Source: Candidatus Saccharimonadota bacterium
GTDB lineage: Bacteria; Patescibacteriota; Gracilibacteria; BD1-5; UBA6164
Reading direction: 5' to 3'
Assembly (NCBI GenBank): GCA_004563595.2
Contig: CP042461.1
Coordinates: 870,001-902,000 of the forward strand
Length of the DNA: 32,000 bases
The position numbers and the translations under genes are program-made. Below, one piece after another: positions 1-32,000 of the stretch. The notes below the pieces were generated by a model. It had not been told where the DNA came from. It worked only from the letters and a program-made list of their open reading frames with translations, and searched no databases. The number at the start of each line of letters is the position of its first letter. Position 1 is the first letter of the stretch.

Positions 1-131
1 TAATAAATAATATGTGCTATTGATATTATATGATAATCTTTTTAAGATTTTTGCAAATATTTCTTTACATAAAAGCAAAAAACGATAATATGAGCTTGTT
101 TTTATTATATTTTTAATATCTAAGGAATCTT

Positions 132-962
132 ATGAGAAATCTAAAAAATACAGCATTCACACTTGTTGAACTTCTTGTAGTAATAACAATCCTAGCAATT
201 ATATCAGTAGTTGCATATCAAAATTTTGGATGAGCCGTTGATAAAGCTGTTTCTGGAAGAAAAATAAATGATATATCAACTATTGAAACTGCATTACAAC
301 AATATAAAGTAGATAATAACTACTATCCTGCTACAGAGGCATATGATGCTTCAGCAAACATGTGGGGATATAATTCATGAACTACTGCAAAACCATCAAA
401 TACAATAGATGTTACATATGACAAAGCTGAAATAACTATCTTAGATAATGCAGATGGAGGATGAAAAGTATACTGATTAAATGACTGATCAACTGACTGG
501 ACTGCTAAACAAATCTGAGCTAAGTGAACAATATCAAGAGATATTTTAGGAAAGAAATATTTATCTAAAGATTTATATGATCCTGAAAATTGAGATTTAA
601 AAATATGATCAAAATTACTTATAGATAGCTGAGTATGAAGATACGTATATGCCACATATAAAAAAGCTAAGTCTAGTTGAGATTGGACTCAAAATTATAA
701 TGGGACAAATTATAACCTTGCATTTACAATCAAAGAAAACTGAACTGATAAATATGTAACCAGAATTGTTGGTGATTATGATGAAGAGTCATGTTATGAC
801 GATAAATTACTCTGTCCATCTACTCTTATTTGATCTTCAAATACTATACTTATAGATAAACAAGAGGAATGAAAAACATCATCTTGAACTGCTCTTGCTA
901 ATTATGATTCAAAACAAGCGGATCAATGAATTCCTTATGCAGTGACTGATTTTGCTGAATAA
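132..962 (+). CDS. Type IV pilin-like protein (prepilin-type N-terminal cleavage/methylation domain), 276 aa under table 25
   Basis: ATG at 132 and TAA at 960-962 are in the same frame (831 nt). The N-terminus MRNLKNTAFTLVELLVVITILAIISVVAY is a class III signal followed by the hydrophobic pilin helix with Glu at +5. There are 17 in-frame TGA codons and no in-frame TAA or TAG. An AAGGA sits 8-12 nt upstream. Confidence 0.85.
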
Positions 963-973
963 TTTTAATTACT

Positions 974-1007
974 AAAAAACTGAAGTGTTTACACTTCAGT
1001 TTTTTTT
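974..1007. terminator. Bidirectional rho-independent terminator shared by the convergent pilin and methyltransferase genes
   Basis: Perfect 8-bp stem ctgaagtg/cacttcag (980-987 / 992-999) with loop ttta, flanked by an A-run (974-979) and a T-run (1000-1007). The methyltransferase stop codon (989-991) lies in the loop. Confidence 0.75.
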
Positions 1008-1654
1008 ATGATTGAAATTATATTTCTTTGATTATCAAATAATCTATTCTCAATTACTTCAAATCATGATTCTTTAAAAAGATACTCGAGTTCAGATATA
1101 TCAAAACAATGATAATATCTTTCAAATTCTCATATTTTTATATTATAATCTATACTTCAAAATTGATTTTCTGTTCAAACTATGACACTCTTATCATATC
1201 TTTTTCTATTAAAATCACTGTTTAATGCCCAATTTGTCATATATATTTTTCATCATTCTTCTAGTAAAGCATAAGTTTTTTTTATGACCTTTCATCTTTC
1301 TTCTAGAGTTTGCAAATGATGGTATGAAGCAAAGAAAAATATATGAGAAAATTTATTTTTTATTTCATCAAGATCAAGCATATTTAATTCCTGAAAATTA
1401 TATTCAGGATATTGTTTTTTTGCTTCATCCAGTAATCATTTAGATAAGTCTACTCAAAGATAATTTTCTGAAGTTATTTTATCAGAAAACCTAGATTTTA
1501 ATTCTCATAGAAAACGTCAATTTCCACATCAGATATCAAGAATACTAATAGATTCACCATCTAAAATATTCCCTAAAAAATAATCCATTTCTGGCCATTT
1601 CATATTTTTTCTTGAATCTGAGAATGTTTTTGCAAAACTATTATAATCTACCAT
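989..1654 (-). CDS. Class I SAM-dependent methyltransferase, 221 aa
   Basis: The minus-strand frame is open from ATG (1654-1652) to TAA (991-989), 666 nt. Motif I reads ILDIGCGNGRFL, with two of its glycines encoded by TGA. Confidence 0.8.
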
Positions 1655-1669: not shown

Positions 1670-3433
1670 TTACATTTTTTCTGGCATTTGAATACCAAGA
1701 ATTTCAAAACTATCCTTTAATACTATTGTAAATAATTCAACTAATTGTAATCTAATTATTTTATTCTCCTGATTTTCTTCATTGAGTATATGAACTGTAT
1801 TATAAAAACTATTAAACTTTTTTGTGAGATCATATGTATAAGTACATAAATGATGTGGCATATTGGTATCAGCCGTTTTTAATAAAATATCTCAATATTC
1901 TCAAATAGACTTTACCAGCTCTACTTCTTCAGAATGTTCAAATTTTCCTATATGGGTACCTTCAAGAGACAGCTCTACATTTTTATTATAGAAATTCTCT
2001 AATATTCTTCTAGCCCTCACGTATGCATATTGAATATATGGTCCACTATTCCCTTCAAAACTCATAAACTCATCCCAATCAAAGATAACATCTGTTTCTC
2101 TTGATTTTTTTAGATATCCATACTTAATAGCTCAGATTCATATTATTTTTGATAACTCATCTAATTCATTTCAAACGATATCGTCTCTTTTCTCTAAAAT
2201 TATTTTTTTTGCTCTGTCTTCCGCTTCATCAAGAAGTTTATCAAGTTTTATGATTCTCCCCTTTCTTGAACTCATTGCACCATCTTTTAAGCTTATAAAT
2301 CAGTTATAAGCATGGAATAATTCAGTATCTTCTTTTACCCATCAAACCTTTTTTGCAATAATAAATGCTTGTTTTAGATGTAGTTGTTGTCTCATATCAA
2401 TGAAATATACAATTTTTTCTGGGTTCCAATTATCCATTCTATATTTAATTGCAGCAAGATCTGATGCTAAATACCCATGAGTTCCATCTCTTTTTTGTAA
2501 TATACAAGATGGAATTTTTAATGCATCGTCAAATATCACTCAAACTGAATTATCATCATTTTGTGTAGCTATTGATTTCTTAATTAACTCTTTCACTATG
2601 AATTCCATATCCCATTTCAAGTCTGGGTATTCTTCTATTTTTGGAAGTCAGAGTCATTCATAGAAACTTTCTCATATATTAAAATTTGGCTTTACTCATA
2701 ACCTTCAAAGCTGTATATTCATAGCATCGATTGAATATGATGTGAATTTTTTCCATAATTGAACTGAGTCATTATTTCCTTCAGATAGTAGTTTAAATTC
2801 ATCTCTTGTTCTTTGTTCCAAAGTACTATCATTTTCAGCTTCAGCAGTAATTTTTACATATAATTCAAGTAAATAATCTACTGCATTAAATTTTAATCTT
2901 TCTTCATCTCCCCAAAGTTTATAAGCAGTTATTAACTTTCAAAATATGATCCCCCAGTCCCCTATATGAGAATCTGAGATCACATTATATGATAATTTTT
3001 TATAAAGATTTATTAATACTTGTCCTTGGTTTGGTGTACACATATGACCAATATGGAGAGGTTTTCAAACATTTGATCAAATATAATCAATAACAATAGT
3101 TTTACCTTTTCAAATATCTGATTTTGTGAATTCATCTTTGTGTTTATACATCTCATGAAAACTATCAGTAAAAATAGTTTTTGATACTTTGATATTTAAA
3201 TATGGTCATGCTGCAGTTACATCATCTATGATATCTTGTTCAACTAAAAGAAGTTCTAAATCTGACGCTATCATTGCTGGTGACTTTTTTAATTCCTTAG
3301 ACAATACAAAACAACCAAATGCAAAATCACCAAGTTCTTTTTTTGGTGGATTTTCTAACTTAATTTCAGAAAGATCAAGATCATAATTATCTTTGATAAC
3401 TTTTTTTAATATATTAATTATTTGTGTTTCCAT
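1670..3433 (-). CDS. argS: Arginine--tRNA ligase, 587 aa
   Basis: Track fragments 1670-1861, 2342-2539 and 3206-3433 are all in one frame (1764 nt). An LHIGHM (HIGH) motif is present, plus the typical ArgRS C-terminal anticodon-binding region ending ...GIQMPEKM. The fragments are joined only by in-frame TGA. Confidence 0.95.
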
Positions 3434-3594: not shown

Positions 3595-4782
3595 ATGGAA
3601 AATATATTAAAAATAAATCATGACTTTTTATCCAGGAGAGTTATTTTCAGTAATAATAATAGTGAGATAAAGAGAATTGTTCAGCATCTTAACAAAGATA
3701 AGTTGGTTATTGTTAGCTGAATAAAAAACGTTTGAAAAACAAATATAGTAAAAGAACTTTTAGAAAAGTTAGGGATGAGTGATAACTATTTTTATTTCAA
3801 CAAAGATTTAGATAACTCAAATGAAATACAATCAGAGGAACATTTAAATAATCTCTATAATACATATGTAAAGTTATACAAAACACCAAAAATAGTTATT
3901 TTACAGAACTGTACCAAAGTAGAATGAATCAAAAACTTCATCCTCAAGTCATATAATAATGATTTAAAAGTTTTACTTGTATGAAATACAATTAAAATTT
4001 GAGGAAAAGCAGAAATAGAGATTTTACCAAGAACTATAAATAATATCAAAAAGTATGATTTAGACATTATTTTAAAATATTGATTATTAAGTGAAATTCT
4101 TGTTATCCAAAATATTTATTTAAAAGAAAAATTTCTTTCCCTTGTTCAAAATGATATTTTTACAAAAGATATATTTTTTAACTTTTGAGTAAAAAACCTA
4201 GATCTCTATAAATATACTATTTCATACCTATCTAGAAATAATACATTCTTTTCATTGAGAGAATTACAAAAATGACTATGTAAACATATGCAAATATCAC
4301 TTAAAACAACTATTGATTACATAGATTACTCTCTTCAAGCAAAAATAATTAAAAAAGTTTATACTTATGATTTAAAAAAATCAAAGGAAATATCATCAAG
4401 GGTAAAGTACTATTTTACAGATACATGAATAAGAAACTCGTTAAATTGTTATAGTTTAGATAGACAAATACTGTTAGAAAATCTTATTTTTAATGAACTA
4501 AGAAAGAAATGATATACAGTATACAATTGATTAAACTGAGTATTTGATTTTACCTTTTATACTACTTCTCAGTATGTTTCATGATTAAACCTTTATATCC
4601 ATATGAGTGAAGCTAAGGATAAAGGTCAACTAAAAAAAGAAGTAAATAAGCTATCAAAAATAAAAGATAAGAATAAAAAATATTTAATTGTTGAAAGTAT
4701 TCCGAAATTAGAAATTAAGAAAACAAATTATGATTATGTTGAAATAGTTGAGATAGATGAATTCCTGAGAAAACTAAAATAA
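3595..4782 (+). CDS. AAA-family ATPase with DUF4143-like C-terminal domain, 395 aa
   Basis: ATG 3595 to TAA 4780-4782 (1188 nt). The Walker A motif S-G-IKNV-G-KT has both glycines encoded by TGA (3718-3720 and 3733-3735). The C-terminal YYFTDTGIRNSL resembles the DUF4143 signature. Confidence 0.75.
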
Positions 4783-4810
4783 AAACCAAGCTTTGCTTGG
4801 TTTTTATTTT
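4781..4810. terminator. Bidirectional terminator between the ATPase gene and the convergent membrane-protein gene
   Basis: Stem aaccaagc/gcttggtt (4784-4791 / 4795-4802) with loop ttt, and A and T runs on either side. Confidence 0.65.
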
Positions 4811-7061
4811 AGTTTTCTTCTTTTTCTTTATATAGTTGATCTTTGTTATTTACTTTTGTATATGATTTACCTCCTACTGTTTCAGACAATGAATACTTTC
4901 ATTTTCAATCAGTATAAATACCTGTTTCTAATATCTTTTCATAAGTTTTATTTACTTCAGTCTCACTATTAATATTCATTTTTCATAAAATGTTTTTCAT
5001 GCCATCTTCTGACATTCATTGAACAATTAATTTTGCTAGATTATCTCAACCATCAACTACCTGTTTAATTCAATCAACTACTTTAACATTAATAGTAGAT
5101 CAATCTTTTAAACTATAATTTGCCCATGTATTTCAATCATTATCATATCAACTACTACCTGCTTTTATATCTGTTTCTCTAGTACTTCATGATTCATCAG
5201 ATGATGTTCATTTTTCAAAGTATTCAGCAAAATCATCTTTAGTTCTAATATGAGCTAAAACATTAGTCCATATTTGATTTCAACCAGCTGTTGATATTTC
5301 GGAACTGTTCTTTTTGAAATTTGTAAAGAAATCTTGTTCATTTTTACTATCTTTAACTTTATCATGTAACTTATCTCAAAATTGCATTTTTATCATCTCC
5401 ATAAATTTTTCTCTTTCTGATGAATTAACCAAAGTACCTTTCAATTCTTTAATATGTTTTCAGAAGTCCTTAATATGTGCGTCAACATGAGTTTGATCAC
5501 TTCAAGCTCATGAAGTATGACTTGCATTAATTCCGCTCATTTTAGTTGTATTATTACCTCAAAATGGAGAAAGATTTTCTCACCATTGAGTTCATTTAGT
5601 ATTATAATGCCCTTGGACAGAAGAACTTACAGTTGAAGCCGCAGTTGATAGCTCAGTTGCTGATTTTCAACCAAACACTGGCGCATATTGTGGAGATTTT
5701 GCAACAAGTGATCATACTTGCTTCCCGAAGTCAGCAATCGGCTGTACAACAGCTTCTGTAATTTTACTTCATTTCAGTGCTGCCATTACTGATATCCATA
5801 ATATTGCAAGTCAAAAGAGTTGCATTAAAATTTCTCAGAAAATTCATTTTGATCAATTTAAAACATTATTCATTTTTGTTGCAGATTCACTCCCTTTTTC
5901 TCACTTTATACTTACTTTAAAACTATTACCACTTTCGGGAAACAAAATAATATGAGAATATTCTCATTCATCTCAAAATTCTATAACAGTATTAAGAGTG
6001 TTATTTTCTGTAGCAAATCAATTTCAAGCTACAAATATAAAAAGTAATCCAAATCAAAGAGCTCCAGAAACATAAACAGGAACCATTGCTAATCAAAAAA
6101 ACTGAGTAACACTAAATTTTCAATCTAAGAATCATTCATTTTCTTTTCAAAAGAAATATAATAATCAAAAGACGGGGGAAAATATCATATATAACCATAA
6201 CCATACAACTCTTGTAAATAGAGCTAGTGCTAGAGATATAACTAATATAGTATAAACAACAATAAATAATATATGAAATATCTTTTCAACTCAAAGTTCA
6301 ACTACATTTGTAATGCTTATTTCAACATCCCTTTCAACTACCTTTGAAAACTCATCTATTTCAAAAATTCAGTATGTGTATGTATTCAACAATCAATATA
6401 ACCCTTTTCACTTCATCAGAGTCTTGAGACTTGGCCTCGCATCACCTTTCTGCCTACAAGAAGAATCACTTCAATTTATTTCAAAATCAGTACATATTTT
6501 TGTATTTTCGACTGAAGATAAATTAGCACTATCCAATACTTCAAAAGGTAATGATAGAACTGATGCAGCAAGGATAGAACTTATAGATATAATAAACTGA
6601 ACAAAAAACCATGAGAAGGGTACTATTAGAACTCATACTACAAATTTTGGTAATGCTTGTTTAAGTTGAAATTTATCCCCTCATTTTCAAATAATGTTCA
6701 TAAATGCAATTCCAATTAAAAGAAATGCAAATATAAAATATACAACATTTGAAACAAGAATCCATAATTGTTTAATAGTTTCTCAGATACCAATTACTCA
6801 TCCATTTACCCATTCAGGAGTAAGAAAAACTCATACCATTTGAGTAAGTAACCCTAATATTCAAGCTACAATCTTAAATAATCAATTTAATCCCGTTATT
6901 ACTGTATCTCAACCTTCAGAGTTTCCTCCTGGGTCTGTAGAATCTCATTCAGCCGCAAAAGCTCCTTCCCCACTCAACATAAATACCGCAAAAATAAACC
7001 CCAGATAGTAAAATATCTTTTTATTTCTATTAAAAAATTGTTTTATATTTGAAAGAATCAT
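4809..7061 (-). CDS. Large polytopic membrane protein, 750 aa; TrbL/VirB6-like topology (tentative), with a roughly 330-aa S/T/G/K/D-rich soluble C-terminal region
   Basis: ATG (7061-7059) to TAA (4811-4809), 2253 nt, with no TAA or TAG in frame and many in-frame TGA. An N-terminal signal or TM segment is followed by about 7 further hydrophobic helices (for example FVVGVLIVPFSWFFVQFIISISSILAASVL), then a hydrophilic tail. The family assignment rests on topology only. Confidence 0.6.
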
Positions 7062-7210: not shown

Positions 7211-8644
7211 TTACCCCAACTTCTTTTTTAACAATTCATTAAAAATCTTTGGATTCCCTTGTCATTTTGAAGCTTTCATAGATTGTCATACAAAGAAACC
7301 AAATATATTTTCATTTCAACCTTTGTAATCCTCGACTTGATTTGGAAAATTTGCAATTACCTCGTCAACTATTGCTTCGAGTGCTCAAGTGTCATTCTTT
7401 TGTCTAAGGTTGTTCTCATCCACTATCAGATCAGCATCACCTCCATTATTAAATAGCTCTTCAATAACTTGTTTCGAATTTGTTGATGAGAGTTCATCTC
7501 AATTTACAAGCTCAATAACTCTTGCTAATTGTTTCATATCAAACTTTAACTCAGAAACAGAATTAATTTCCTCGCTTTCTTTAATAATAGCAAGCAATAT
7601 AGTAGTAATATAACTACATGATCTTTTTGGATCTTTTGTGAGAGATACTAATCCTTCAAAGTAATCTGATAAAGCTTTATCAGCTGTTAAAATTCTCGCA
7701 TCATCATCTCAGAGTTTATATTCATTGAGATATCTGAGCCTTCTATCAATTGGGAGCTCTACTAAGCAGGCTCTTGCTTCTGAAATAAACTCATCTGTCA
7801 GATTAATTGGCAATAAATCAGGTTCTGGAAAATACCTATAATCCATAGCATCTTCTTTTGATCTTTGCGAAGTACTCGTTCATTTTTCATCATCCCAACC
7901 TCTCGTTTCTTGATCAATTTCTCCACCTGATTCAATAATTTTTAATTGTCTTTTATATTCATGATCAATAACTCTTCAAATAGCAGAAAAACTATTTACA
8001 TTTTTTGTTTCTGTTCTCATTCACCATTCTTTTGCTCACTCTGGAGCAATTGATAAGTTTACATCACATCTCATTTGACCTTTTTCCATATCAGCATCTG
8101 AGACTCCTGCTGCTCTCATGATTTTTTGTAATTCTCTTAAGAATTCCATTACTTCTTCTTTGTCATGAAAAACTGGATCTGTTACTATTTCCATAAGTGG
8201 ACTTCATGCTCTATTAAAATCACATAAAGTTTTACCTCATGTATGAATAAGCTTTCAAGCATCATTTTCTAAATGCATATGATGAATACGGAATTCTCTA
8301 GTCTCTCCATTTACAAGAGTTTTTACTGATCCTAATCATACAATTGGATCATAGAGCTGAGTGATTTGATAACTATTCGGACTATCAGGATAAAAATACG
8401 TCTTTCTATCAAATCTTGAATATTTATTTACTTCACAGTTCATCATCATACCACCAATAAGCCCCAATCTTACAACTTCTGCATTGAGAGCAGGAAGCAT
8501 TCCTGGAAATCACATACATATAGGACACACATTTATATTTGCTTCTGGGGCAAGTGCTACTGCATTTTTACAACTACAAAACATCTTTGTTTCAGACTTT
8601 ATTCTCATATGTATTTCAAGACCAATAGTTTTTACATATTTCAT
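7211..8644 (-). CDS. gatB: Asp-tRNA(Asn)/Glu-tRNA(Gln) amidotransferase subunit B, 477 aa
   Basis: ATG (8644-8642) to TAA (7213-7211), 1434 nt. The translation [15 protein letters not shown]...CPICMGFPGMLP...[11 protein letters not shown]...RCDVNLS...YRYFPEPDL matches GatB hallmarks end to end. The Gly in CMGFPG is a TGA at 8510-8512. Confidence 0.93.
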
Positions 8645-8838: not shown

Positions 8839-9141
8839 ATGGAATTACAAATAAAAATACACATAGATAAACTATTAGAAGAATCAAAAGAAGTCATTGA
8901 TAGACTTGTTGAAACAAATATAAATAAAAAACTTGATTCATACTTAAAACAATTCACTAAAAATGATGCTGAAGGGATTATCGAACTCTCAGTAGAAAAG
9001 AATAAAAAGGGTGAATTTAACGGAAAGGTTCAAGCAAATTTAGATGGAAACTCTTATAGATCTGAAAGAGAAGATTTCAAAAACTTAGATGATTTAATTA
9101 ATCATCTATTTGATCATCTAAAAGTTCAATTAACAGACTAA
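8839..9141 (+). CDS. hpf: Ribosome hibernation promoting factor / RaiA (S30AE family), 100 aa
   Basis: Intact ORF even in the standard code. MELQIKIHIDKLLEESKEVIDRLVETNINKKLD...DLINHLFDHLKVQL fits the S30AE fold pattern and size. Confidence 0.8.
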   Translation: MELQIKIHIDKLLEESKEVIDRLVETNINKKLDSYLKQFTKNDAEGIIELSVEKNKKGEFNGKVQANLDGNSYRSEREDFKNLDDLINHLFDHLKVQLTD

Positions 9142-9198: not shown

Positions 9199-10383
9199 TT
9201 AAATTATTTCTTTCAATATATAATCCATTACAAGTACTCATTTATCCTCTAATTTTATAACTGAATTTTCTTCTTTTAAATATCAGTCTTTTATAAATAA
9301 ATTTATTTTATTTGTATCTAACTGTGAATATAAACTTTGTTCTATCCCAGAAGTCCTGAGCTGAAACATAATTTTTTCTAAAAAGAGGTCTTCTGAGTTA
9401 CTTAATTCTTGCACTTTCTTTTCTCTCTTGTAATACTCATTAAAACTATCACTATTTCTATACCTTACTCAATTTGTATATCAATATGCTCATAATCAAA
9501 AAGCAACTATTTGTGAATGGTTCCAATATGCCTGATTATGCTTGCATTCGTATCATGGTTGAGAAAAATTTGATATTTCATAACTATGAAATCACCTAGA
9601 TTTTAAAAATTTTTTTATTTCTCTATATTCAGCTAAGTAATCTTCATCCTTTATCCCAAGTTTATTCCAATCATCTGGATACGTTACCTTATCATATTTT
9701 GTTTCTATTATTTTATCTTCATTGTAGTATTCTTCAAGCAAATATACCGAAATATGCTTTATAAATGAATATGCATCTAATATATACTCTATATCTTTTT
9801 TAATTTCTCATTTTTCTACATACGGGAGTCCGATAATAAAATCAAGAGAAATATTATCAATTCATCTCTCTTGTAGAAGATCTAAAGCCTGTATGATATC
9901 TCACTTATTCCCTCTTCATATTTCATCTAGACTTTTCGTACTCAGAGTTTGCACTCACATACTTATCCTATTTATTCATAATTTTTTCCAGTTTTGTAAA
10001 TTCTCTTTCGTCACGTTAATTGGTGTCGTTTCAAGTGTGATTTCAATATCAGGGTCAAAACAATATTTCGATTCCATTGTATCAAGAATCATTTTTATCT
10101 GAGATAGTTCCAAAACACTTGGGGTTCCTCATCAAAAATAAATACTTTTTAAATAACCTCACCCTTGAATTCCCTCTCCTACAGGAGAAGGAGGCACAAA
10201 AACTCATATCCCCCTCTCCTGTAAGAGAGGGGTTAGGGGTGAGGTTCTTACCTCATCTACCAATGAATGGACATATTTTGATATTTGAAATTTTTGAGTA
10301 GATCAGATAGATGCAAATCTACAATATCCGCACTTCTGGTCGCAAAAAGGAATATGAATATATGAATATAAATTTTTATTCAC
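9199..10383 (-). CDS. hemW: Radical SAM family heme chaperone HemW / HemN-like protein, 394 aa, carrying an in-frame palindromic insert
   Basis: GTG start (10383-10381; there is no in-frame ATG after the upstream TAG) to TAA (9201-9199), 1185 nt. Motifs present: YIHIPFCDQKCGYCRF (CxxxCxxC), YFGGGTPS, GINRISMGVQT and HNQAYW. Confidence 0.85.
10155..10246. repeat. GC-enriched palindromic element E1, about 92 nt, inside the hemW coding sequence
   Basis: Outer 10-bp inverted repeat aacctcaccc/gggtgaggtt. Inner hairpins ccctctcct-aca-ggagaagg and cccctctc-ctgtaa-gagagggg. GC content is visibly above the surrounding sequence. Confidence 0.7.
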
Positions 10384-11725
10384 AACTTGATGATAAGTTT
10401 TCTAAATGAACAAATTTTGTCGTTTTACAAGTAATTCTAGACCTAAAAGAATCAAATAATTCTTTATAGTTTGAAGGGTTATCCAAAATAGAAAGAATTT
10501 CTCTATCATAAAGGTTCTTTACTCACTTATCAAAACTCTTTAATTCATATGATGGTTCATAAAAATCTCCTAAAACCATATTGAACTCTGGATGAATTTT
10601 TTCTCATAACTTATCTGATTCTAACGATAACAATGCTGGTAAGTAATATGGAAATGTATCTAAATATGTCCCTACTCCTGAATCTGTTGAAAGGAATTGC
10701 AAAACAGTTGTTGCTAAATCAATATTACTAGAATCCTTGTTTATAACAAAGTAATTATAATTTAACAAAGTAGCTCCATCACCAGAGTAATAATGAGGAA
10801 ATGGACTTGCAAGTAAGAAGTTTTTTCAAAATCATTTCTTATGAATTTCTTGGATCATTCTAGGGTATCAAACTACCATATAGGTCTCTGATTGTGAGAA
10901 AAGGTCTAAGTTATTTTTTCATAAAGCTATTAAATCACTATATCTTGAATTATAAGCATTATTTCATGAGATATCTCAATATAATAAATATGATGCTAAA
11001 CTTTGTTTCAGTTTTGGTCCAGTAACATCAGCAAGTTTAGATACCCCATTTTCTAACATAAAAAATTGTGTAACAATATCAGCTGCATTATATACTGTAG
11101 ATCAATTTCATAGTCAAATTGGAATTAAGTTTGGTTTTTTATCTTTTAGTTTTGAAATGATACTATTAAGACCTGATAGAGATGTTAATTCCGAGGCTTT
11201 TATGTACCTTCTATTAAAATAGATTCATAAAGTTTCATATCCAATAGGAACTCAAATTAAAAATTCCACTTGTTTTTCTCCATCTAATACGGACATAATT
11301 AAATCATCTGAAAATACTCACTTATATTTTTTCCTAAAATCTATTGGACTAATGAGTTCAGGGTTAATTCAGAGAACTTGATCCTGAAAGATAGAGGTTT
11401 TTTCATTATTATTTAATACAAATAAGTCTGGTCATTTTCATTTTGATATTGCTGAAGCCAAAGCTGAATAATAGTCTTCATAAGATGAAAAACTTTCAAT
11501 TTTTATTTGTGTATTTTTGTATTTTGGATTGAGTGCTTTAAAATCAGTCATAACATCTCACATATTTGATGCGCTATCATTCATGATCCAAACTAAAAAA
11601 TCGTTTCAAGTTGAACTTCCTTTTCAAGTTTCTCATTTATCATTATTTAAGATAGAAAAAATCCAAACTACAAATAGAAGTAAAGATATTCCTATAATTG
11701 AAAGTATTATTTTATTTTTGTTCAT
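10376..11725 (-). CDS. Extracellular solute-binding protein (ABC-type, family 1-like), 449 aa
   Basis: ATG (11725-11723) to TAA (10378-10376), 1350 nt. An N-terminal TM or signal segment is followed by FLVWIMNDSASNMGDVMTDFKALNPKYKNTQIKIESF...AISKGKGPDLFVLNNN, which is typical of sugar-type SBPs. The stop overlaps the hemW GTG start. Confidence 0.7.
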
Positions 11726-11749: not shown

Positions 11750-12064
11750 TTATATATCTGATAGGAGATGCATATGTATATGCATAACTTCTTGTCCTCA
11801 TTTTTCTCACACATTAAAATTGAGCTTATATCACTCACTTACTCCCATATTTTTTGCTACTTTTTGGGCAGTAAAAAACATTTCAGCAATGAGTTTTGTA
11901 TCTTCTTGACCTAAGTCATTAATCGTATATATTTCTTTCTTTGGAATAATTAATAGATGAACCTTTGCTTTTGGGTTTATATCTCTAATAACAATCAAAA
12001 CATCATTTTCAAATATAATCTCTGCTGGAATTTCTCGGTTAATAATTTTTGTAAAAATAGACAT
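11750..12064 (-). CDS. HIT family (histidine triad) protein, 104 aa
   Basis: Track ORF 11831-12064 continues through three TGA codons to ...NVGEKGGQEVMHIHMHLLSDI, then TAA (11752-11750). The HxHxHxx triad is present only when TGA is read through. Confidence 0.9.
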
Positions 12065-12081: not shown

Positions 12082-12333
12082 TTAATAATCAATTTCAGAA
12101 AAATTATCTGATGGATTTTCTATCTCAACTGAATTATCTAAATTAGATGAAAACAAGATAACACCATATCAAAAAACAGATAAAAGTACGAGCAAAACAA
12201 ATAAACTATTTGTTATTTTTGTAATATGATTACTAAAATTTTTAAATTTAAATGCATGAATCTTAGCAATAATGAAAAAGCCCCAAATTCAGACTAAAAA
12301 CAATGTATATAATCAAATATAAACCAAAAGCAT
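12082..12333 (-). CDS. Small two-TM membrane protein, 83 aa (hypothetical)
   Basis: ATG (12333-12331) to TAA (12084-12082). Two hydrophobic segments; fits the gap upstream of the HIT gene. Confidence 0.45.
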
Positions 12334-12436: not shown

Positions 12437-12466
12437 TAAAAGAGTAATAAATATTAACTAAACATT

Positions 12467-12841
12467 ATGGCAGAAATAAAACAAGGTGGGAAAGCTTTTC
12501 ATGTATCAGATGATGTTCAAGCTCAATATGCTGAACTTATAAAATTGATCCTTGCAACTGACTCTATGGATGATAATGAAAGACAATATTGGTTTGATAT
12601 TATGCCTTCAATGACGGATGAACAAGTTGATAGGCTGTATAGTATTCTTGATACAGAAAAGAAAAAACTTGAAGATCTTGAAACAAAATACCAAGATGAG
12701 ATCAAACAACTGAATGAAAAACATCTTATCGAATGGCAAGATTTCCAACTCAAAGATTCTAAAAAGAAAATCAAAGAAGAAGAATCTAAAGACCAAGAAA
12801 CAGATGCAGAAGATGTACTCAAAATGTTAAATGACATGTAA
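12467..12841 (+). CDS. Acidic coiled-coil hypothetical protein, 124 aa
   Basis: Intact ORF in the standard code, with its own promoter and a strong terminator. No family recognised. Confidence 0.75.
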   Translation: MAEIKQGGKAFHVSDDVQAQYAELIKLILATDSMDDNERQYWFDIMPSMTDEQVDRLYSILDTEKKKLEDLETKYQDEIKQLNEKHLIEWQDFQLKDSKKKIKEEESKDQETDAEDVLKMLNDM

Positions 12842-12847
12842 TTAAAT

Positions 12848-12888
12848 AAAAAAAGAACTATTAGTTTAAAACTAATAGTTCTTTTTTT
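12848..12888. terminator. Bidirectional terminator with a 12-bp perfect stem
   Basis: Stem gaactattagtt/aactaatagttc (12855-12866 / 12870-12881), A-run 12848-12854, T-run 12882-12888. Confidence 0.8.
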
Positions 12889-13303: not shown

Positions 13304-17314
<4,011 letters not shown>

Positions 17315-17468: not shown

Positions 17469-20927
<3,459 letters not shown>

Positions 20928-21497: not shown

Positions 21498-23038
21498 TTA
21501 TTTACTCTCTTTTTTTTGGTCCCTCTTTATATAAGTCTCTATTTCCTGTAAACATGCAATATAATAATTATTATTTTTATCAGACATTTTTTCACAATAA
21601 GATGTATCTCTAGTTTTTCTTCATAATCTATACAATAATGAAAAATTACATTTAGTATATAATACCTCATCTCCTGATAAACGATCACAATATGACACAT
21701 CTCACTCTTCTTCTCACAGCTGTAGTAGTTTAACATATACATAGTTAACACATGTCTCTCTTATACCTTTATCTTTAATCATTATGCATGCTCAATAATC
21801 AAAAAATTTCTTTCCATATTCTTGATAACAATATTCTCAATCATCTAATTTTAAACATAATTGTATATTATTTTCACTTAATGCTTTTTCTGTATAAAAA
21901 CTACTAGCACAAACATCTTTCATTCATCCATTAATATGTTCACATGCTGTTACATCTCATAAACTTTTTGAATATTCAAAATAACATTCACCTATAAAAG
22001 AACTCCTTTCACATATTAACATATTTTTTTCTTCTATTGCTTTTTTAACTGCTGATATAGAGTTCATTTTGCTACTTGAAGAAATAGAATCATTATTATA
22101 TATTAAAACATCATCAGTAATATTATTTCCATTTACATAGACCTTTTCAATATCTAATCATTTTAACATTATATTATGATAATAAACATAATGTTTGTCT
22201 TTTGCATATTTAGAATTAATTAATTTAAATGTTTCTGGGTCAGCTCAAGTTATTTTTTTTCATTCAAAATAAACATTATTATTATCTTTTGTATAATTGT
22301 ATGCATTATTTTTATCGTTTATTATTTCAAAAGTTTTTGTATTTATATTTTTTATTATATTTCCATTAAAATATACATTATTATCATCTAGTCAATAAGG
22401 TGAAAATATATGATTATAACCTAAATCAAGGATTTGAAAACTCGGGGCATGAGCCATTAATATTTTGTTTCATTTATAATAGACACTTTTTTCATCTTTT
22501 GCATAATATCATTTAAATAATTCTTGAAAACTAATTGAGATAGCTCATTCAATGAGAGTATCCTTAAAATATACATTCTTATTATCTAATATATAGAATT
22601 TTCCTAAAATTTTTGCACTGCTGGGTTTTAATAAAGAATTTTTTTTTAATTTTCAATTAGTAATCTGTCAGTAGTATACATAATCTTTATCAATATAGAA
22701 ACGTGAAAAAGAGTTACTTCATAAAAAAGAGAAGGTTTTTGCATCAGCTCAATTAAATACTCTGGTATAATTATATATATTATTTTTATCCTTTGCATAT
22801 GATCATATTTCCTGGAAAGTTTTATAATCAGCTCACTCAATTAATAAATAGGTAGTATCACATCATCCTCATCAAATATCATGTCCACAATCAATAGGTG
22901 GTTGTATTCTATAAACCTCTTTATCTTTTATAATGTGTTTTTTTAAAGTTAATTGATTGCCTTTTTTATTGTTAAAATCTTCTGACTCACAAGAAAAAAG
23001 GATAAAAATACAAAAAGCAAGGCATATATTTTTTTCAT
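21498..23038 (-). CDS. DKNYY-repeat lipoprotein with a Cys-rich C-terminal region, about 513 aa; the start codon is out of frame because of an A7 tract
   Basis: The frame is open from 23030 down to TAA (21500-21498) and contains repeated GAD..TF......YAKDKNNIY / YAKDEKSVYYKG / YAKDKHYVYY modules. The lipobox ILFS-C is in this frame. The only ATG (23038-23036) is displaced by one nucleotide (1541 nt in total). Confidence 0.75.
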
Positions 23039-23121
23039 AAGATTAGACTTTATAAATTAATATAATAAGACCTTATGAATTATTTCTGATTTTTCAAATA
23101 AATTTTATTAATATTTATTTT

Positions 23122-23177: not shown

Positions 23178-24224
23178 ATGAGTTTTAAAATTACAGAAAT
23201 TAGTAAGAAAACACAAAATCCTCTTATGAGAATAATAAAATTATTCATTTGGATATTTATCCTTATATGATGAATAAATTATTATAATTATTCACAGTTC
23301 TCTGATGAAATCTTAACAGATACAGCTCAGATTATATATATAGAGTCTGGTGACACTTTTTACTGACTCAAAGAAAAATTGAATATTCAAAGTAGTTTCA
23401 TGAATATATATCTCAAAAATAACACTCCTGATTTTGAATTACATGCATGAAAATACCAAATTCATACATGAGCTACCATTTGATCTATTTTAGAATCTCT
23501 TCAAAATCCAATCTTTGAAGAAATGAATATCACCCTTCTTGAGGGCTGGAATATATATGATATAGATGAATATCTCTGAAAAAAATGAATCATAAATACA
23601 GGCGAATATATAAGCTATGTTACAAATACAGAAAAAATAGAAAAACTCACTGAATTTTTCCCTTTTTTAGCATGACTTGAAACTCTTGAGGGTTTTCTTT
23701 ACCCAGATACCTACAAGATAGACACTTCAAACTTTAAAATTAATAGCTTTGTTATTACTCAATTGGAAACATTTGAAAATAAAGTTGCTAATATTGTTTT
23801 TAAAGACAGAGACTTATCTCAAGAACAAATAGTTGATGTAGTAACTCTTGCTTCAATTGTCGAAAAGGAAGAAAAAAATATACAAAATAAAGCGACCGTT
23901 GCTTGAGTTTTAAAGAAAAGACTCAGAGAATGATGGATGATTGGTGCTGATATCACCGTTTGTTATCCTCATAAACTTACTGCTCATGAATGTAAAATGG
24001 TAGTAAGTAAATATATAAATGAAAAAAATGAATACAATACAAGGACCATGAGGTGACTCCCAAAAACTCCTATCTGAAACCCGAGTAGCGAAACAGTAAA
24101 TGCAACACTGAATCATAAAAATAGCCCTTACTATTTTTATTTGCACGATACTCAAACTTGAAAAATATACTATGCAGAAACAAATCAATGACATGTGAGG
24201 AATAAGAATTTGTATTTGAGGTAA
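23178..24224 (+). CDS. mltG: Endolytic murein transglycosylase MltG (YceG family), 348 aa
   Basis: ATG 23178 to TAA 24222-24224 (1047 nt). An N-terminal TM segment is followed by LASIVEKEE and YNTRTMRGLPKTPIGNPS, matching the YceG signature YNTY..GLPPGPI.NPG, and then ...YYFYLHD. Confidence 0.88.
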
Positions 24225-24482: not shown

Positions 24483-25448
24483 TTATTTTGATACATCTTT
24501 AAATAACTTATTTATAGTATCATCAACACCTAATATTTCATCATATTTATATTCCTCATTATTTATTTTATAAAAATCAAGTTTAGATATATATTGAAAT
24601 TTAGCTAAATCTTTCTTATCTTTATCCGTTAATTTTTTATCAAAATATGAAATTATTTTTTTATTTATAGCTTCGTATGAAGTCAAATATTCATTTTTTC
24701 TTCAATGGTGATAATAAATAGTATTTAATATCACCTTTTTTTCTGTTTTTGATAATAAATTTACTTTACTTTTGTAAATTTGATTAAAATCATCGAAATT
24801 CTCTAAATTAGAATTTACGTTAAAATAGTTTACAAATTTAAAAAGATGTAAATCAAAATATTTTTCCTGGAAAATTTCATTTACTGATTTTCATTTTAAC
24901 ATTCATAATGGATATGAATAATCGACCTTTCAATCTTCTGTTTCAAAGCTAAAAGCATGAAGAATTTTTAAAATCGGGATCCATATTTTTAAAAATAAAG
25001 GGAAAGTTTCTTCTCAAGTATAGAACTCTTTTGTTGTTTTATATAACCATTTTTTAGTCTTTATATTGTATGTCATAAATATCAAACTACATTCTCAACT
25101 TCAAGCTCATCATGCGTAGCAAATTGGAAATTGGACTGTGTTTTTGTTTATATATTCTATATCAATAGCACATCACTTTATATATAAGTCTTTAGAATGT
25201 GGAAAATCTAAAAGTATTTCTTCTTTTCAATCTATGATAATTTTTGTTGTTCAATAAGAACAAATTTCGTGACTAGATTTAAAAGTGTTTGTTATTTTAA
25301 TATTCTCCTGCATTAATAATTCTTGATTCCAGTATTCAATATATTTTGTTTTTGGCTCAAAAAAACCTATTATAAAGCTAATTATAAATCAAAGTAACAC
25401 TACTGAAAAAATAGTAGTTTTTTTATATTTTTTAAATAGCTTTTTCAT
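24483..25448 (-). CDS. Membrane-anchored hypothetical protein, 321 aa
   Basis: ATG (25448-25446) to TAA (24485-24483), 966 nt. There is one N-terminal TM segment. The C-terminus corresponds to track ORF 24483-24686. Confidence 0.65.
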
Positions 25449-25457
25449 AATGTTTTA

Positions 25458-26126
25458 TTATTTAATACTGATTTCTTTCTGCGGTTCAGACATATCAATT
25501 TTATCTCAAAGAAATTTAGGATTTGAACTCATAAGCTCTACGTCTAAAAAAGCTTTTACTCTTGCCAGTACTTCTCTTCTATTATAGTAATCCTCATGGA
25601 TATACTTCTGTAAGTTTGTAGAAACTCAAATCGTATCGAGTCAGACTCTTTGTCAGATATAGTTTGCTCTTTTCAGATGAAAGTCTTGTGTAAATAAGAC
25701 CACTTCTTCAACTCCAAATAATTCTTTCGCTCTAAATAAAGTGTCATACGTATCAAATCAAGCATAATCTAAATAAATATGATCGATATGAACATCATTT
25801 TTTATGAGGTAGTCTCTCATCCCAGTAGTTTCATCATACTCTTCTCTAGAATTATCTCATGATACAATTATCTTTTTAATTTTTCAACTCTTATATGCTT
25901 GAATAGCTACTTTTAATCTATCCTTTAATATATCAGATGGACTGAAATCTTTCTTGACTTTTGCTCAAAATACAAGTCCAACCTCTGTTTGTTCAAGTTG
26001 TCATACATCAGTTAAGATCTTATCTTTTGAAAAACTCAAAACATAAAGGTTAATCAGTAGAATAGCTATGACTCATAGGATCGTCATAATTCATCAGCAC
26101 TTTAGTATAATAATTATTTTTTTCAT
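25458..26126 (-). CDS. sanA: SanA/YdcF-like (DUF218) envelope protein, 222 aa
   Basis: ATG (26126-26124) to TAA (25460-25458), 669 nt. An N-terminal TM segment is followed by GLVFGAKV...IIVSGDNSREEYDETTGMRDYL...DYAGFDTYDT...TQDFHLKRANYI, which is the SanA pattern. Confidence 0.85.
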
Positions 26127-26131: not shown

Positions 26132-27238
26132 TTAATATTCTCAAACTAAAATATTGTTTTCTCTTTCATAAGAAAGTTCTTCCTCGGTCCAAGTATCTTT
26201 TGGTTGATAATTATATTTAAACATTCTCCTATTTGAGAGTGTTCAATATCTGTTAAACACCTTTTCCCAGGGGACCATAACTCTTCTATTTGTTACCGTT
26301 TCAGCCACCCATACTCAATTTGAATCAAAGCTATAAGCTGCCACTATATGCAATACCTTTTTATTTTTTCTTTCCTTCCAAGAATAATAATCTAAATAGT
26401 ACGTAATTGCTACTGGATCTCCAGCTTGGAGTGAATGAATGAGCGTATCAAGGTAATAATATCTATCCACTTCAACATGAGAGACTTCATCAAACTTCTT
26501 CATTATTGGGAATGTCCATAGTTTTTTAGGAGCTTTTCCTATCAATTTTTCTGCTTTTGGTATATAAATACCTATTCCGTCTTTGTATTTTAATATATTT
26601 CTCACTGAAAATGCGTAGCAACCGTTTAGAGTTTGTCATTTGAGTGGAAAATTATAATGAGTGTTTAATAATGGTTTGTATCAAGCAGCTAAATACTCAT
26701 TTGGTTTAGAGTAATATTTTCTGAGTTTCCTATCTAATATCTTTGACACGTACTTATAATACGTTCATTTTAAAAAGAATGTTTTATCATCTGCTTCTCT
26801 TTCACAGATTCTATGGTATTTGCAGTTTTGTAATGAAAACATGACCTTTAATCGTTTCATCACGGTAAAAAAATCTCTTTGATTCAAAGCTCCTGTAGCA
26901 TCAAAGTATTCTCTTTTTGAGAAGGCTCCTAGTCAAGCAAAATAACTCACCTTTTTTCAGAAATCACTTTCAAGATCTATATCTTTAAAATACTCAGAAT
27001 TATCTATTACTTTATAGTTTAAATAGTCTATATTTACTCCTCTATCTTTTTTATAGTCAATAAACCAACTATGCAAGGTTTCTACAAACTCTTTTCTTGT
27101 GATGGGCTTATCTAAGCTTTTTGTATTAAAGCTATACTTTTGAGTAAGATCTACGCTTCATTGCTCCATTTTGTATCAAGCAAAGCTTGAGTTTGTAATT
27201 GCAAAAAATATGATTATTCATGTGATTATTTTCCTCAT
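26132..27238 (-). CDS. Secreted protein with a C-terminal papain-like (C39-like) cysteine peptidase domain, 368 aa
   Basis: ATG (27238-27236) to TAA (26134-26132), 1107 nt. Signal peptide MRKIITGIIIFFAITNSSFA. Candidate catalytic Cys in QTLNGCYAFSVRNILKY and candidate His in HIVAAYSFDSNGVWVAE. The family call is motif-level only. Confidence 0.55.
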
Positions 27239-27581: not shown

Positions 27582-27623
27582 CTTTATATTCAAGCTTTTA
27601 AATTATTTTCTTAAATAAGCATT

Positions 27624-29310
27624 TATGAAAAATATTATAGTTTTTTTAGCTCTTTTTTTAGTCAATATTCCTTCCTCTTTTGCTTTAAATCCGGCAGACT
27701 ATCTCAATCCAATACCAAAAGAATTCAAATCTTGATGTTATGAATTCTATACAAAAATACCAAGATCAAGTTTTGAGAAATACAAAACCTATACTCTCAA
27801 AACTAATAAACCAAATATTGTAATAACACAATTTGGTTTTATTTTGCCCTATAAAAGCTTCTGAACTGAAAAAAAATACTATAATTATTTAACAGACCTC
27901 ACAGATAATACAGAAAGCCTTGTTGATGATAACCGTAATACCACTATTCATTATGATGTAGAAAACAAGTCTAACATTATACTCATAGAACTTGAACAAG
28001 AGCTTCAAGCTGGGAGTTTCAAATTCCACTTCGATTATTTATCAAAATTATTTTTTACCAGTTACTGAATATCGTCTGACTGAATAAACTATTCAACTGT
28101 ATCAAAAAGTGACCTCAGTGACTTTTCATTTAAATATTTAAAAATAGATTTTTGACATAAAAATGATGAGAATATAAGAGAGCTTATATCTATTTCTGAA
28201 TTAAACTTTGAAATACTGAATAACACGTATCTCATTAAACCTTTTTATAATGATGATATAGAAATATATTCAAAAAATAACTGTAACAATAACGTTTCTA
28301 CAAAAGCAAAACAATATGATGATTTTCCTATCAGTAATGATACACCTCTCCTGGAAGTCATGTTAGAAAAAAATCCAAAATATAACGTATATTTAAAAAG
28401 TGACATCGATAATGATTGGGTAGAAGATATGATAGATAATTGTAAAACAAGATATAATCCAAATCAACTTGATACAAACTCTAACTGAATATGAGATACA
28501 TGTGATGATGATGATAAAGACTGACTTATATGATACTATGATAACTGTCCATATATAAATAATAGAGATCAAACAGATGTAAATAGAAACTGAGTTTGAG
28601 ATATCTGTGAATTTGATAAAGATAAGGATTGAATATTTGATAGCTTAGATATATGTATAAATATAGCCAACCCAGATCAAGAAGATCAAGATAAGGATGG
28701 GATTTGAAATGAATGTGATAACTGTAAATATTATAATCCGAGCCAAAGAGACGTGGATGAAAACTGAATTTGAGATATATGTGACACAAAGAGAAAGGAA
28801 CTCTCAAAAAATGACAATGACTTGGACTGAATTCATAATAATAAAGATAATTGTAAAGATATAGCAAATCCAGACCAAATAGATAATGATCTCGATTGAA
28901 TCTGAAACTCATGTGATAACTGTCAAAATATTCAAAACAAGTATCAACTTGATCTGAATAAAAACTGAACCTGAGATATGTGTGAAGATAGCGATTGAGA
29001 CTCAATCATATGATACAAAGATAATTGTATCAACTCAAAAAATAAAGATCAACTTGATAGTGATAATAATTGAGTCTGAAATGTGTGTGAAGATACCGAT
29101 TATGATAAAATATTATTTATAAATGATAACTGTCCCTATGATTATAACCCAGAGCAAAAAGATATAGACAAGGATAGTATCTGAGATATATGTGATGAAA
29201 AAGATGACAGATTCATAGAATCGAATAAATGATTTTTTATATGACTCCTCATATTTATAACTTTTATATTCTCCTATGGAATATATGCAATGATAAGAAA
29301 ACTAAAATAA
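27624..29310 (+). CDS. Thrombospondin type-3 repeat (calcium-binding) surface protein with a C-terminal TM anchor, about 561 aa; the signal peptide is out of frame at a T8 tract
   Basis: The frame is open from 27649 to TAA 29308-29310. About ten repeats of DNC..i.NpdQ.D.d.nGiGd.CD occur between 28440 and 29210. The ATG at 27624 gives MKNIIVFLALF, and the rest of the signal peptide (LVNIPSSFA-LNP) is reached only if T8 (27652-27659) is read as T7. Confidence 0.85.
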
Positions 29311-29331
29311 CTTTACTACTAACTCTAAAGA

Positions 29332-32000
29332 ATGTTTAAACTACTCAATCGTTTTGCCTGGATACTCTCAATACTTTCATGATTTGTTATACTCTTCCTG
29401 TTTTGAATTGCCATTGATGAAATGGATGGAGGTTATAGTAGTTTTTTGGATGATGATTTCTTTTTTATATGGTTCCTTTGAAGTCTCTTTATCTGAAGTA
29501 TTTTTAAAAAAATATTTCTTTCTCAAAAATTTATAGAAGAAAGAGTGAGTTTTTTTGCTGATGCATTAAATATAAAAAAATCTAAAAAGGACAAAAAAGA
29601 TATCCCCGAAACTATTGATATTCCAGAATCAGTAGCATTAGAGAATATAAGTAATATAAAAACAGAAAAAATAAATGAGGTTCAACAGGTTGAATATTCA
29701 GAACCTACTTTTGAAAAAGAACAGTCAAAAGTAGAAAATTATATTAAAAAATTCTTTAGTGAAAATATCCTTGCAAAAATAGGGGCTATTCTCGTATTTT
29801 TTTCTGTTGTATTTTTACTGAGCTTAGTGTGGAGTCAGTTTAATGCTGTTTGAAAAATTATCATCTGATTCATTATTTGATTTTGAATATTTTGAGCATG
29901 AATTATATTAGATAAAAGATGATTTACTTGAGAATCAAGAGTACTATTATGAACATGAGTACTTATAAATTACCTTGTTATTCTTGCCTGAAAATATTTG
30001 ATAGGAGATAATTATTGACCTCAAACTGAATGAATATTATCAACTTGAATTACGTTCTTATTTCTCATACTTAATACGGTATTTTGAGTTGTTACTTCCC
30101 TTCTCTATAAATCAAGAACCATATTGTTATTCTCATTTATTTTTGCTTATATCAACCCTCTTATTATCTGATGAAGCTCAGAAACTCCGTATACTCTTTT
30201 ATGATACTCAATGATTGTATCACTTTGAGCATTATTTATAGGAATCAAACAAAATGATATTATACTCAAATACTCTGCGTTTATATTATGAAACTTATTA
30301 TTTTTAATCGCTCCATTTGGTTGAGAAATAGAATGGATTACAAAGCTTCTTTCTAGTGGTTTTTTATGATTCATAAGCATAATTTCTCTTTATAAAAAGA
30401 ACCCTGAAACTATTGTAAGTATTTTTGTACTTAATTATATATTCATAATATTACTTCTTATTTCTGGCTCTGATATATCTATATTATGAGGGAGTATGAG
30501 CTTTATAAGTTATATGACATCAATACTTCTCTTCTTTTGAATATGAGTATGGTTATTCACCCTTCAAGCTATCAAGTCTATTACTCCTCTTTTATTATTT
30601 CCTATACTGATAGTAATTTGACTTATTTTCTCAGGAAGTGTATTTTTCATAGCTCCTGCTATTGCGATTCTTGTTCTAACGTATCTGATATGATTTCAAT
30701 TTCTGGAATCTTTCCTTACTCCAGTTTTTAAATATTTCTTCTTCTGAATTCTTGGTTGATTTATTTTACTCTCAAACTCATATCTCTCATTTCATTTAGT
30801 AGATATAAGTTTCTCAAGTTTTATCACTGTTGTAATAGTATCATTTGTATTTATGTTTACATCATATTATTTATCAAGAAAAGAAAAATTAGAGTTCTTA
30901 TATAGTATCTGAACCTTATGATGAATATTAACTCTCGCTCCTCTTTTAGTAGTATGAACTCATGATAATACTCTTTCTCAAGGCTTTGAAACACTTTCTA
31001 TTCTTTCTGTTCTCATATTTGCAATAGCAAACCTCGCTCTTCCTTTTGTAAATAAAACTCTTATAGAAAAAACAAGTAATGTAAAAAACCTTGTTACATG
31101 AAGTATCTTTGGGGTACTCTTTATATGATTTGAGTTATTTCGTTACTGAAATGAATACTTCCCTGGTATCAGCCTCTGATTTGCTTTTGCATGATTAGCA
31201 ATTCTATATTTTATTCTCAGTTATCTTATCCTAACTCAGCTTGGAATACAAAATATCAAAAAAGAATGAGCTTCAAAAAATACAGTTCTTTCATATCTAT
31301 TTATTTCAATCTCTCTCTTCTCTCTTGCTGTTTCACTTGTATTCTCATGACACGCTGAAATTATCTCAACAGTTTGGTTATTTGAAGCAACAATTCTCTT
31401 TTACTTCTATTCCAAAACAAAAGAAATAAAAATCTTTTCAGTTTGAATTATACTTTTTATGATTTGAATTATTAAGCTATTTGAGCTTCAAAATATTGTA
31501 CAAAAATGAGATTTTATATTCTTGATTCCATTTACCATTATATTCAGCTCACTTGTATGGAATATTAAATTCCTAGACTTTGTAAAAGACGGGGCACAAA
31601 GATATATTCATGATATCTTTCATATACTTTGAATCTGAGTATTATGAGCATTATTGTTAGAGATTATTCCAAGTACATGACATGGTTGGAGCATTCTAGG
31701 CATCAGTTCATTCTTACTCATCATTTGAACTGTCTATGCGTATTTCAGTTCAAAGCTTTTAAAAATATTTTTCATAGTAGCAATATCATTATTCACATTT
31801 GGACACTTTGAAGATTCTTCTCGTATTATGAATAACATTGATCGTGATGAGATCTGATATTTAAGAATATTACAATATATCTCAACAATACTAATAGCAT
31901 CTATAATTTATATTTGGCATAAATTTAATACTGAAAAACTTCTTGCAAATATATTAAAAATATTTATATCACTCTATATATTGGCTATTGTTTCATTCTA
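29332..32000 (+). CDS. Large polytopic membrane protein, DUF2339-like, more than 889 aa, 3-prime partial (runs off the window)
   Basis: ATG 29332, with no TAA or TAG in frame through 32000 (checked codon by codon). A hydrophilic linker containing track ORF 29545-29853 is followed by more than 20 hydrophobic helices. Alternative start: GTG at 29545. Confidence 0.75.

Follow-up and report, generated by a model that had tools for sequence, protein, structure and literature searches.

How the UGA codon is read is the question raised by the stretch of DNA considered here, which comprises 32,000 nucleotides of contig CP042461.1 (GenBank assembly GCA_004563595.2, forward strand, positions 870,001 to 902,000) and is called the window in the following; coordinates are numbered from its first letter. 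Under the standard bacterial code (translation table 11) its open reading frames (ORFs) are shattered, and unless translation table 25 is applied, in which UGA stands for glycine and UGG for tryptophan, the gene content of the window is invisible. A preliminary description had proposed this reading for the whole window. Our comparison with other genomes supports it: UGA is a sense codon for glycine, and UGG still encodes tryptophan. The biology behind this is already known, and the window is one more member of a well-described recoded lineage, adding no new principle.

Translation of the window with TGA as a sense codon

The longest stop-to-stop ORF in any frame grows from 239 amino acids (aa) under table 11 to 1336 aa when TGA is taken as sense, further ones measuring 1158, 890, 754 and 592 aa, among others. 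This effect is confined to TGA, as making TAG or TAA sense in its place changed little across the whole window and did not rescue the ORFs, which bears out the earlier explanation of the broken ORF track. In a comparison of translation tables, which had been suggested as a check, the share of the window covered by ORFs that have a start codon and a length of 100 aa or more rose from 9.7% under table 11 to 84% when TGA was sense. In detail, 22 gene models with 9,784 codons were obtained at a coding density of 92%. TGA occurs in frame 406 times in them, TAA and TAG never, in agreement with the claim that the conserved genes are broken only at TGA; the 17 in-frame TGA codons reported for the pilin gene were likewise counted again. 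RpoB (1152 aa), RpoC (1336 aa), GatB (477 aa) and arginyl-tRNA synthetase (ArgRS, 587 aa) are full-length after read-through. Pfam domains run over TGA codons in 14 of the scanned gene products, among them the pilin N-methylation motif, the S-adenosylmethionine (SAM)-dependent methyltransferase, ArgRS and the AAA_14/DUF4143 ATPase, as well as GatB and the radical SAM, solute-binding, HIT, DKNYY, YceG, DUF218 and thrombospondin type 3 (TSP3) proteins. RpoB and RpoC were recognized through public gene calls with precomputed Pfam RNA polymerase domains and through homologues, and were not themselves scanned against Pfam here.

All coordinates cited in the preliminary description proved to be in-frame TGA codons in the context given, each of them exactly. 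Thus, the codon lies within RVSALGPG-TGA-LTRE of RpoB (19668-19670), RRDRM-TGA-HIDL of RpoC (16943-16945) and CPICM-TGA-FPG of GatB (8510-8512), and it occupies two positions each in the Walker A motif of the ATPase (VS-TGA-IKNV-TGA-KT, 3718-3720 and 3733-3735) and in the SAM motif of the methyltransferase (DI-TGA-CGN-TGA, 1529-1531 and 1517-1519). The TGA at 28486-28488 of the TSP3 protein stands in the context DTNSN-TGA-I-TGA-DTCD. About ten TSP3 repeats with such glycines had been proposed, of which seven were recovered by a strict motif search, several others being degenerate. The conserved tryptophans of RpoC (AHIWYLK, 16907-16909) and GatB (RGWDDE, 7895-7897) are encoded by TGG, as had been stated.

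To avoid circularity, the residues expected at TGA positions were taken only from orthologues that are intact with TGA as a stop. A scan with the RpoC of the window against one genome per GTDB species yielded 80 rpoBC loci, mostly from unrelated phyla, namely one from Gracilibacteria, one from SR1 and 78 others, the scan being dominated by the universal ADFDGDQM pattern. The references kept were 58 RpoB and 78 RpoC sequences. The window proteins were aligned to them with X at every TGA, and columns were counted if occupied in at least 70% of the references. At the 70 TGA columns of RpoB and RpoC the mean glycine frequency was 0.649, compared with 0.709 at columns where the window has GGN. Glycine was the most frequent residue in 46 of the 70 columns and made up at least 90% in 38 of them, while tryptophan reached 10% in none and never ranked first. 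The summed log-likelihood for TGA was -88 for glycine and -264 for the runner-up, alanine. Each of the other codons for which more than five columns could be aligned has its standard meaning (CGA, CGC and CGG are not present in those columns), and TGG columns had a mean tryptophan frequency of 0.72. The claim that the TGA codons fall on invariant glycines therefore holds for about half of them, i.e. the 38 columns mentioned, while the rest are at positions that vary, which is also true of many GGN glycines.

When E. coli K-12 RpoB and RpoC were used, glycine was found at 46 of 75 aligned TGA sites, at 73% of the GGN sites and at 2.8% of other sites (Fisher p = 5e-46 for TGA against the other sites); tryptophan occurred at one of the 75 TGA sites, inside a poorly aligned stretch. 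In GatB, 10 of 15 TGA sites correspond to glycine in the Aquifex aeolicus protein (PDB 3h0l_B), and other solved GatB chains are similar. The alignments of these three proteins, which had been named as a way of checking the code, are thus enriched for glycine and not for tryptophan at TGA.

The DNA of relatives was compared at six loci (L203 to L208) with an RpoC identity of 73–81%, using up to 10 orthologous genes each and again masking TGA as X. The codons found in the relatives were as follows.

Window TGA sites (n = 910): TGA 48%, GGN 23%, TGG 0% (0/910)
Window GGN sites (n = 981): TGA 30.5%, GGN 50%, TGG 0.1%
Window TGG sites (n = 140): TGA 1.4%, TGG 79%, CGG 2.9%

In this comparison TGA thus exchanges with GGN as a synonymous codon would, and it does not do so with TGG.

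Composition was considered in addition. Among the 704 glycine codons of the window TGA is the commonest (406, or 58%), followed by GGA (116), GGT (114), GGG (59) and GGC (9). Glycine makes up 7.2% of residues if TGA is counted and 3.05% if it is not, and tryptophan makes up 0.64% with TGG alone, compared with 4.8% if TGA were tryptophan. The reading of UGA as glycine according to table 25, put forward in the preliminary description, is thus supported by three independent tests, namely column composition, codon exchange in relatives and residue composition.

Competing readings of UGA and the decoding apparatus

According to translation table 4, which is used by Mycoplasma and Spiroplasma, UGA is tryptophan, and this reading has been applied to the present contig by a large public protein collection. 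Among the best 120 RpoC homologues in that collection (P0001 to P0120), the best match, P0001, is identical to the RpoC of the window at non-TGA codons and carries tryptophan at all 40 TGA codons, from which it follows that the gene was called with code 4. An inflated tryptophan content (>0.75%, mostly 3–5%) is seen in 103 of the 119 other homologues; the other 16 contain about 0.5% tryptophan and 7.5–8% glycine, and the NCBI-named Gracilibacteria entries inspected all fall into this low-tryptophan group. Coding density is also unable to separate table 4 from table 25 (bioRxiv 10.64898/2026.05.24.727570). Against tryptophan speak the standard-code columns, where it follows TGG and never TGA, and the relatives' DNA, in which not one of the 910 TGA sites has changed to TGG. 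In addition, this reading would raise tryptophan to the 4.8% given above and would place it at the Walker A, SAM-binding and TSP3 glycines. The code-4 entries can be examined in the same way: at the TGA columns of the window the relatives translated in this manner show 48% W (standing for TGA) and 37% G (standing for GGN), the sum of tryptophan and glycine in RpoC stays at about 110 across those inspected, and W makes up 96% of the seven columns with a true TGG, whichever set of homologues is taken. Judged by the standard-code columns and the codon exchange, UGA as tryptophan is already refuted, as the preliminary description had held for the Mycoplasma-type code, and we give it practically no credence.

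The shattered ORFs under table 11 could also mean that UGA is a true stop and that the window consists of pseudogenes or was badly assembled. The interruptions are, however, solely TGA; all 406 lie in frame, with no frameshift and no TAA or TAG among them, they are concentrated on conserved glycine columns, and over 100 independent assemblies from relatives show the same pattern. We regard a stop as even less credible than tryptophan. Slightly more room, though still very little, is left for an ambiguous or context-dependent UGA that is mostly glycine and in some places stop, selenocysteine or tryptophan, or for a UGG that is partly misread as glycine by wobble at U34 of the tRNA. A tRNA with the anticodon UCA could indeed also read UGG (Shulgina & Eddy, PMC8629427), and UGG is rare, at 0.64% of codons. 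On the other hand, all 21 complete genes run on to a TAA, with C-termini that match those of homologues (GatB has 477 aa, the Aquifex protein 478 aa), TGG is kept at 79% of sites in relatives as listed above, and no Rfam family, the selenocysteine insertion sequence (SECIS) included, was found in the window at gathering thresholds.

In the 22 genes of the window UAG was seen neither in frame nor at a gene end. The possibility that TAG is an unused or unassigned codon was rejected, as about 10% of the long ORFs of relatives end in it and its absence from 21 gene ends is within expectation (p ~0.1).

Some points weigh against UGA as glycine. Glycine is not the most frequent residue in 24 of the 70 TGA columns, i.e. 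about a third; ARAGORN found no tRNA gene in the window or in ten Gracilibacteria or SR1 loci, so the decoding tRNA is unseen there; and the evidence for glycine in this organism is comparative. The first of these does not count against glycine, because GGN columns behave alike (26 of 114).

By analogy with what is described for the lineage, UGA would be read by a dedicated glycine tRNA with the anticodon UCA, carrying the identity elements G1:C72, C2:G71, G3:C70 and U73 for glycyl-tRNA synthetase. Release factor 2 (RF2) would have been lost, leaving no competitor for UGA and leaving termination at UAA and UAG to release factor 1 (RF1), and AT mutational pressure would then have driven the replacement of GGN by UGA. 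Recoded Gracilibacteria have been reported to possess the UCA-type glycine tRNA, with these same identity elements in the lineage, and to lack RF2 (Shulgina & Eddy 2021, PMC8629427). None of the BD1-5 genomes that could be consulted in 2019 had the RF2 gene prfB, and all of them had kept the RF1 gene prfA (Sieber et al. 2019, PMC6851277), and according to the summary in that paper the assignment of UGA to glycine was validated by proteomics in a BD1-5 bacterium from an enrichment culture (Hanke et al. 2014, PMC4032931). The statement that the reassignment is established for the lineage is thus well founded in the literature (PMC8629427, PMC4032931, PMC6851277). Among relatives the use of TGA follows AT content, with 3 TGA codons in the RpoC of L003 (38% GC) and 40–59 in relatives at 24–28% GC, which fits the picture of AT pressure (PMC8629427).

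Metagenome contigs were additionally scanned for a pattern combining a glycine-type acceptor stem with a UCA anticodon. At least seven glycine-type tRNA(UCA) genes turned up. None of them can be assigned to this genome, and most of the matches listed were tRNA-Glu(UUC) or odd glycine-like tRNAs. Two of the tRNA(UCA) genes lie on short low-GC contigs (L096 and L154) whose ORFs lengthen when TGA is sense. Others were seen on high-GC contigs outside the low-GC recoded lineages (L116, 1-74, GC 0.62; L102, 76-146, GC 0.53), and these may be suppressor tRNAs or tRNAs of mobile elements. Furthermore, at least 10 glycine-like tRNAs with a GCGGG...CCCGCU acceptor stem have a six-base anticodon loop, CTTCAA, and are labelled 'tRNA-???(tc)' by ARAGORN (among them L089:1511-1583, L091:3623-3694 and L093:628-700). 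They look like tRNA-Gly(UCC) minus one C and are unrelated to the window.

CGG and CGA codons in the clade

In four relatives with an RpoC identity of 72–77% (L204, L205, L206 and L209), five CGG codons were found among about 18,400 aligned codons, and all five stand opposite a TGG of the window. In window numbering they fall on RpoC codons 327, 502, 764 and 797 and on one codon of the 750-aa membrane protein. Their positions in the relatives are listed below.

L204:907-4932, RpoC, codon 328
L205:6283-10299, RpoC, codon 764
L206:10001-14026, RpoC, codon 501
L209:10001-14023, RpoC, codon 797
L206:20480-22879, orthologue of the 750-aa membrane protein, codon 321

In standard-code bacteria, RpoC column 764 is tryptophan in 78 of 78 sequences and column 502 in 69 of 78. 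The database translations P0016, P0034, P0046 and P0077 show arginine at the CGG sites, P0016 and P0077 being NCBI-named entries that were translated with code 25.

The Codetta program predicts a reassignment of CGA/CGG to tryptophan in Absconditabacteria and some Gracilibacteria (Shulgina & Eddy 2021, PMC8629427). The prediction that some Gracilibacteria read CGG as tryptophan concerns the same clade and is matched by the five CGG codons of the four relatives; our reading of CGG, if true, would therefore extend a published prediction and not found one. The window differs from the predicted recoding in that it has no CGG and that its two CGA codons look like arginine. Neither CGG nor CGC occurs in its 9,784 codons, and CGG is absent from the window and its two nearest relatives, L207 and L208 (about 20,400 codons together). 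Consequently, a reassignment of CGG cannot be read in the window, and table 25 translates the window correctly whichever way CGG is read.

Arginine is almost wholly encoded by AGA in the window (233 codons), CGA being used twice (12035-12037 and 26852-26854). The first of these lies in the HIT-family protein at what we take, from the E. coli sequence, to be an arginine conserved in HinT. In the nearest relative one CGA aligns with an AGA of the window. A reassignment of CGA in this genome was rejected on these thin data, i.e. one CGA at the HIT-motif arginine and one opposite AGA.

In the clade CGG appears to have been captured for tryptophan. It is conceivable, although we consider it rather doubtful, that the code of the present organism is not exactly table 25, and that its genome is at the stage of a vacated codon or already reads CGG as tryptophan. 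If true, this would be a second reassignment layered on that of UGA to glycine.

Gene content, lineage and relation to known codes

The 22 gene models obtained with TGA as sense are listed below with their strand, product and number of in-frame TGA codons.

132..962, +, type IV pilin-like protein, 276 aa, 17 TGA (PF07963 N_methyl, E = 4e-7)
989..1654, -, SAM-dependent methyltransferase, 221 aa, 12 TGA (PF13649, E = 5e-15), both glycines of DIgCGNg being TGA
1670..3433, -, ArgRS, 587 aa, 18 TGA (PF00750, PF05746, PF03485)
3595..4782, +, AAA_14/DUF4143 ATPase, 395 aa, 13 TGA (Pfam), both Walker A glycines being TGA
4809..7061, -, membrane protein, 750 aa, 52 TGA, 11% glycine (no Pfam match of its own; weak TrbL_3 in the L209 orthologue)
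7211..8644, -, GatB, 477 aa, 15 TGA (PF02934, PF02637; alignment with PDB 3h0l_B)
8839..9141, +, hypothetical protein, 100 aa, no TGA (kept beside gatB in relatives)
9199..10383, -, radical SAM (HemW-like) protein, about 394 aa, 19 TGA, probable GTG start at 10381-10383 (PF04055)
10376..11725, -, extracellular solute-binding protein, 449 aa, 21 TGA (PF13416, PF01547)
11750..12064, -, HIT-family protein, 104 aa, 3 TGA, CGA at 12035-12037 (PF01230)
12082..12333, -, hypothetical membrane protein, 83 aa, 3 TGA (ORF/gene call)
12467..12841, +, hypothetical protein, 124 aa, no TGA (conserved in relatives)
12896..13237, -, hypothetical protein, 113 aa, 2 TGA (ORF/gene call)
13304..17314, -, RpoC, 1336 aa, 40 TGA, 7 TGG (homologues, alignments)
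17469..20927, -, RpoB, 1152 aa, 37 TGA, 3 TGG (homologues, alignments)
21498..23042, -, DKNYY-repeat protein, at most 514 aa, 23 TGA, start uncertain (PF13644)
23178..24224, +, YceG/MltG, 348 aa, 15 TGA (PF02618)
24483..25448, -, hypothetical protein, 321 aa, 13 TGA (ORF/gene call)
25458..26126, -, DUF218 protein, 222 aa, 12 TGA (PF02698)
26132..27238, -, hypothetical protein, 368 aa, 11 TGA, CGA at 26852-26854 (ORF)
27625..29310, +, TSP3-repeat protein, 561 aa, 27 TGA (PF02412, E = 1e-41), the DxDxDGxGD glycines being mostly TGA
29332..32000, +, polytopic membrane protein, more than 889 aa, cut by the window end, 53 TGA (DUF2339 in the L209 orthologue)

All 21 genes that are complete in the window end in UAA. 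An antisense ORF at 12454-12915, opposite the gene at 12467..12841, is rich in serine and was judged spurious.

Two gene starts deserve comment. The public call of the radical SAM gene (9199-10383, minus strand) begins at an internal ATG and gives 253 aa, by which the CxxxCxxC cluster motif is lost. A GTG at 10381-10383 lies immediately upstream of LYSYIHIPFCDQKCGYC in this ORF, and the orthologues in relatives have 354–385 aa. In the DKNYY gene, an ATG at 23038-23036, followed by a run of seven A (23035-23029), misses the reading frame of the long ORF by one base. Eight instead of seven A would give the product the N-terminus MKKNICLAFCIFILFSC, which is a lipoprotein signal peptide containing a lipobox; the run reflects either a homopolymer error of the assembly or phase variation by slipped-strand mispairing. 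In the public annotation the product of this gene has 319 aa, counted from an internal ATG.

Glycines encoded by TGA abound in three large envelope proteins, namely those at 4809-7061 (minus strand), 27625-29310 and 29332-32000 (both plus strand). The TSP3-repeat protein has a C-terminal transmembrane anchor, and its gene and the DUF2339-like gene that follows are also neighbours in the relative L209.

The lineage was examined with the best 120 RpoC homologues mentioned above, to which the window protein is 70–97% identical. Wherever a source name is present it is 'Candidatus Gracilibacteria bacterium', in line with the candidate phyla radiation lineage claimed for the organism, while the RpoC of an SR1 (Absconditabacteria) genome is only 43% identical. 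NCBI taxid 363464 currently bears the name Candidatus Altimarinota, within the Patescibacteria group. The contig corresponds to ENA ERZ510998 NODE_17_length_412643, with copies at NCBI and JGI, and the first letter of the window falls near its base 67,598. The G+C content of the window is 28%, and the gene order around rpoBC is kept in relatives. The window is almost certainly an ordinary chromosomal segment, with rpoB-rpoC, gatB, argS and genes for surface and membrane proteins, of an uncultured low-GC bacterium of the Gracilibacteria/BD1-5 lineage that uses genetic code 25.

The recoding of this lineage was proposed in 2012–2013 and validated by proteomics in 2014, and NCBI lists a separate translation table for it. 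The main value of the present analysis is that the window is read correctly and that attention is drawn to code-4 translations among public protein data. If table 4 is applied, errors affect about 4% of the residues of every protein, glycines of catalytic and nucleotide-binding sites among them. The code-4 tryptophans in the public RpoC entries of this contig and of most relatives will distort alignments, profiles and structure predictions of Gracilibacteria, and profiles or structure predictions made from such entries would carry tryptophan at conserved glycines.

Of the known systems, translation table 4, as found in Mycoplasmatales, Entomoplasmatales and some insect endosymbionts, has in common with the window a sense UGA, an AT-rich reduced genome and identical ORFs and coding density, but the window differs from it in that TGA aligns with glycine and never with tryptophan. 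Table 25, the Candidate Division SR1 and Gracilibacteria code (Campbell et al. 2013 and Rinke et al. 2013, as cited in PMC8629427), shares with the window UGA as glycine, UGG as tryptophan, UAA as a terminator, a low GC content, the Gracilibacteria/BD1-5 lineage and a use of UGA that scales with AT content, and within its 32 kb the window shows no departure from it.

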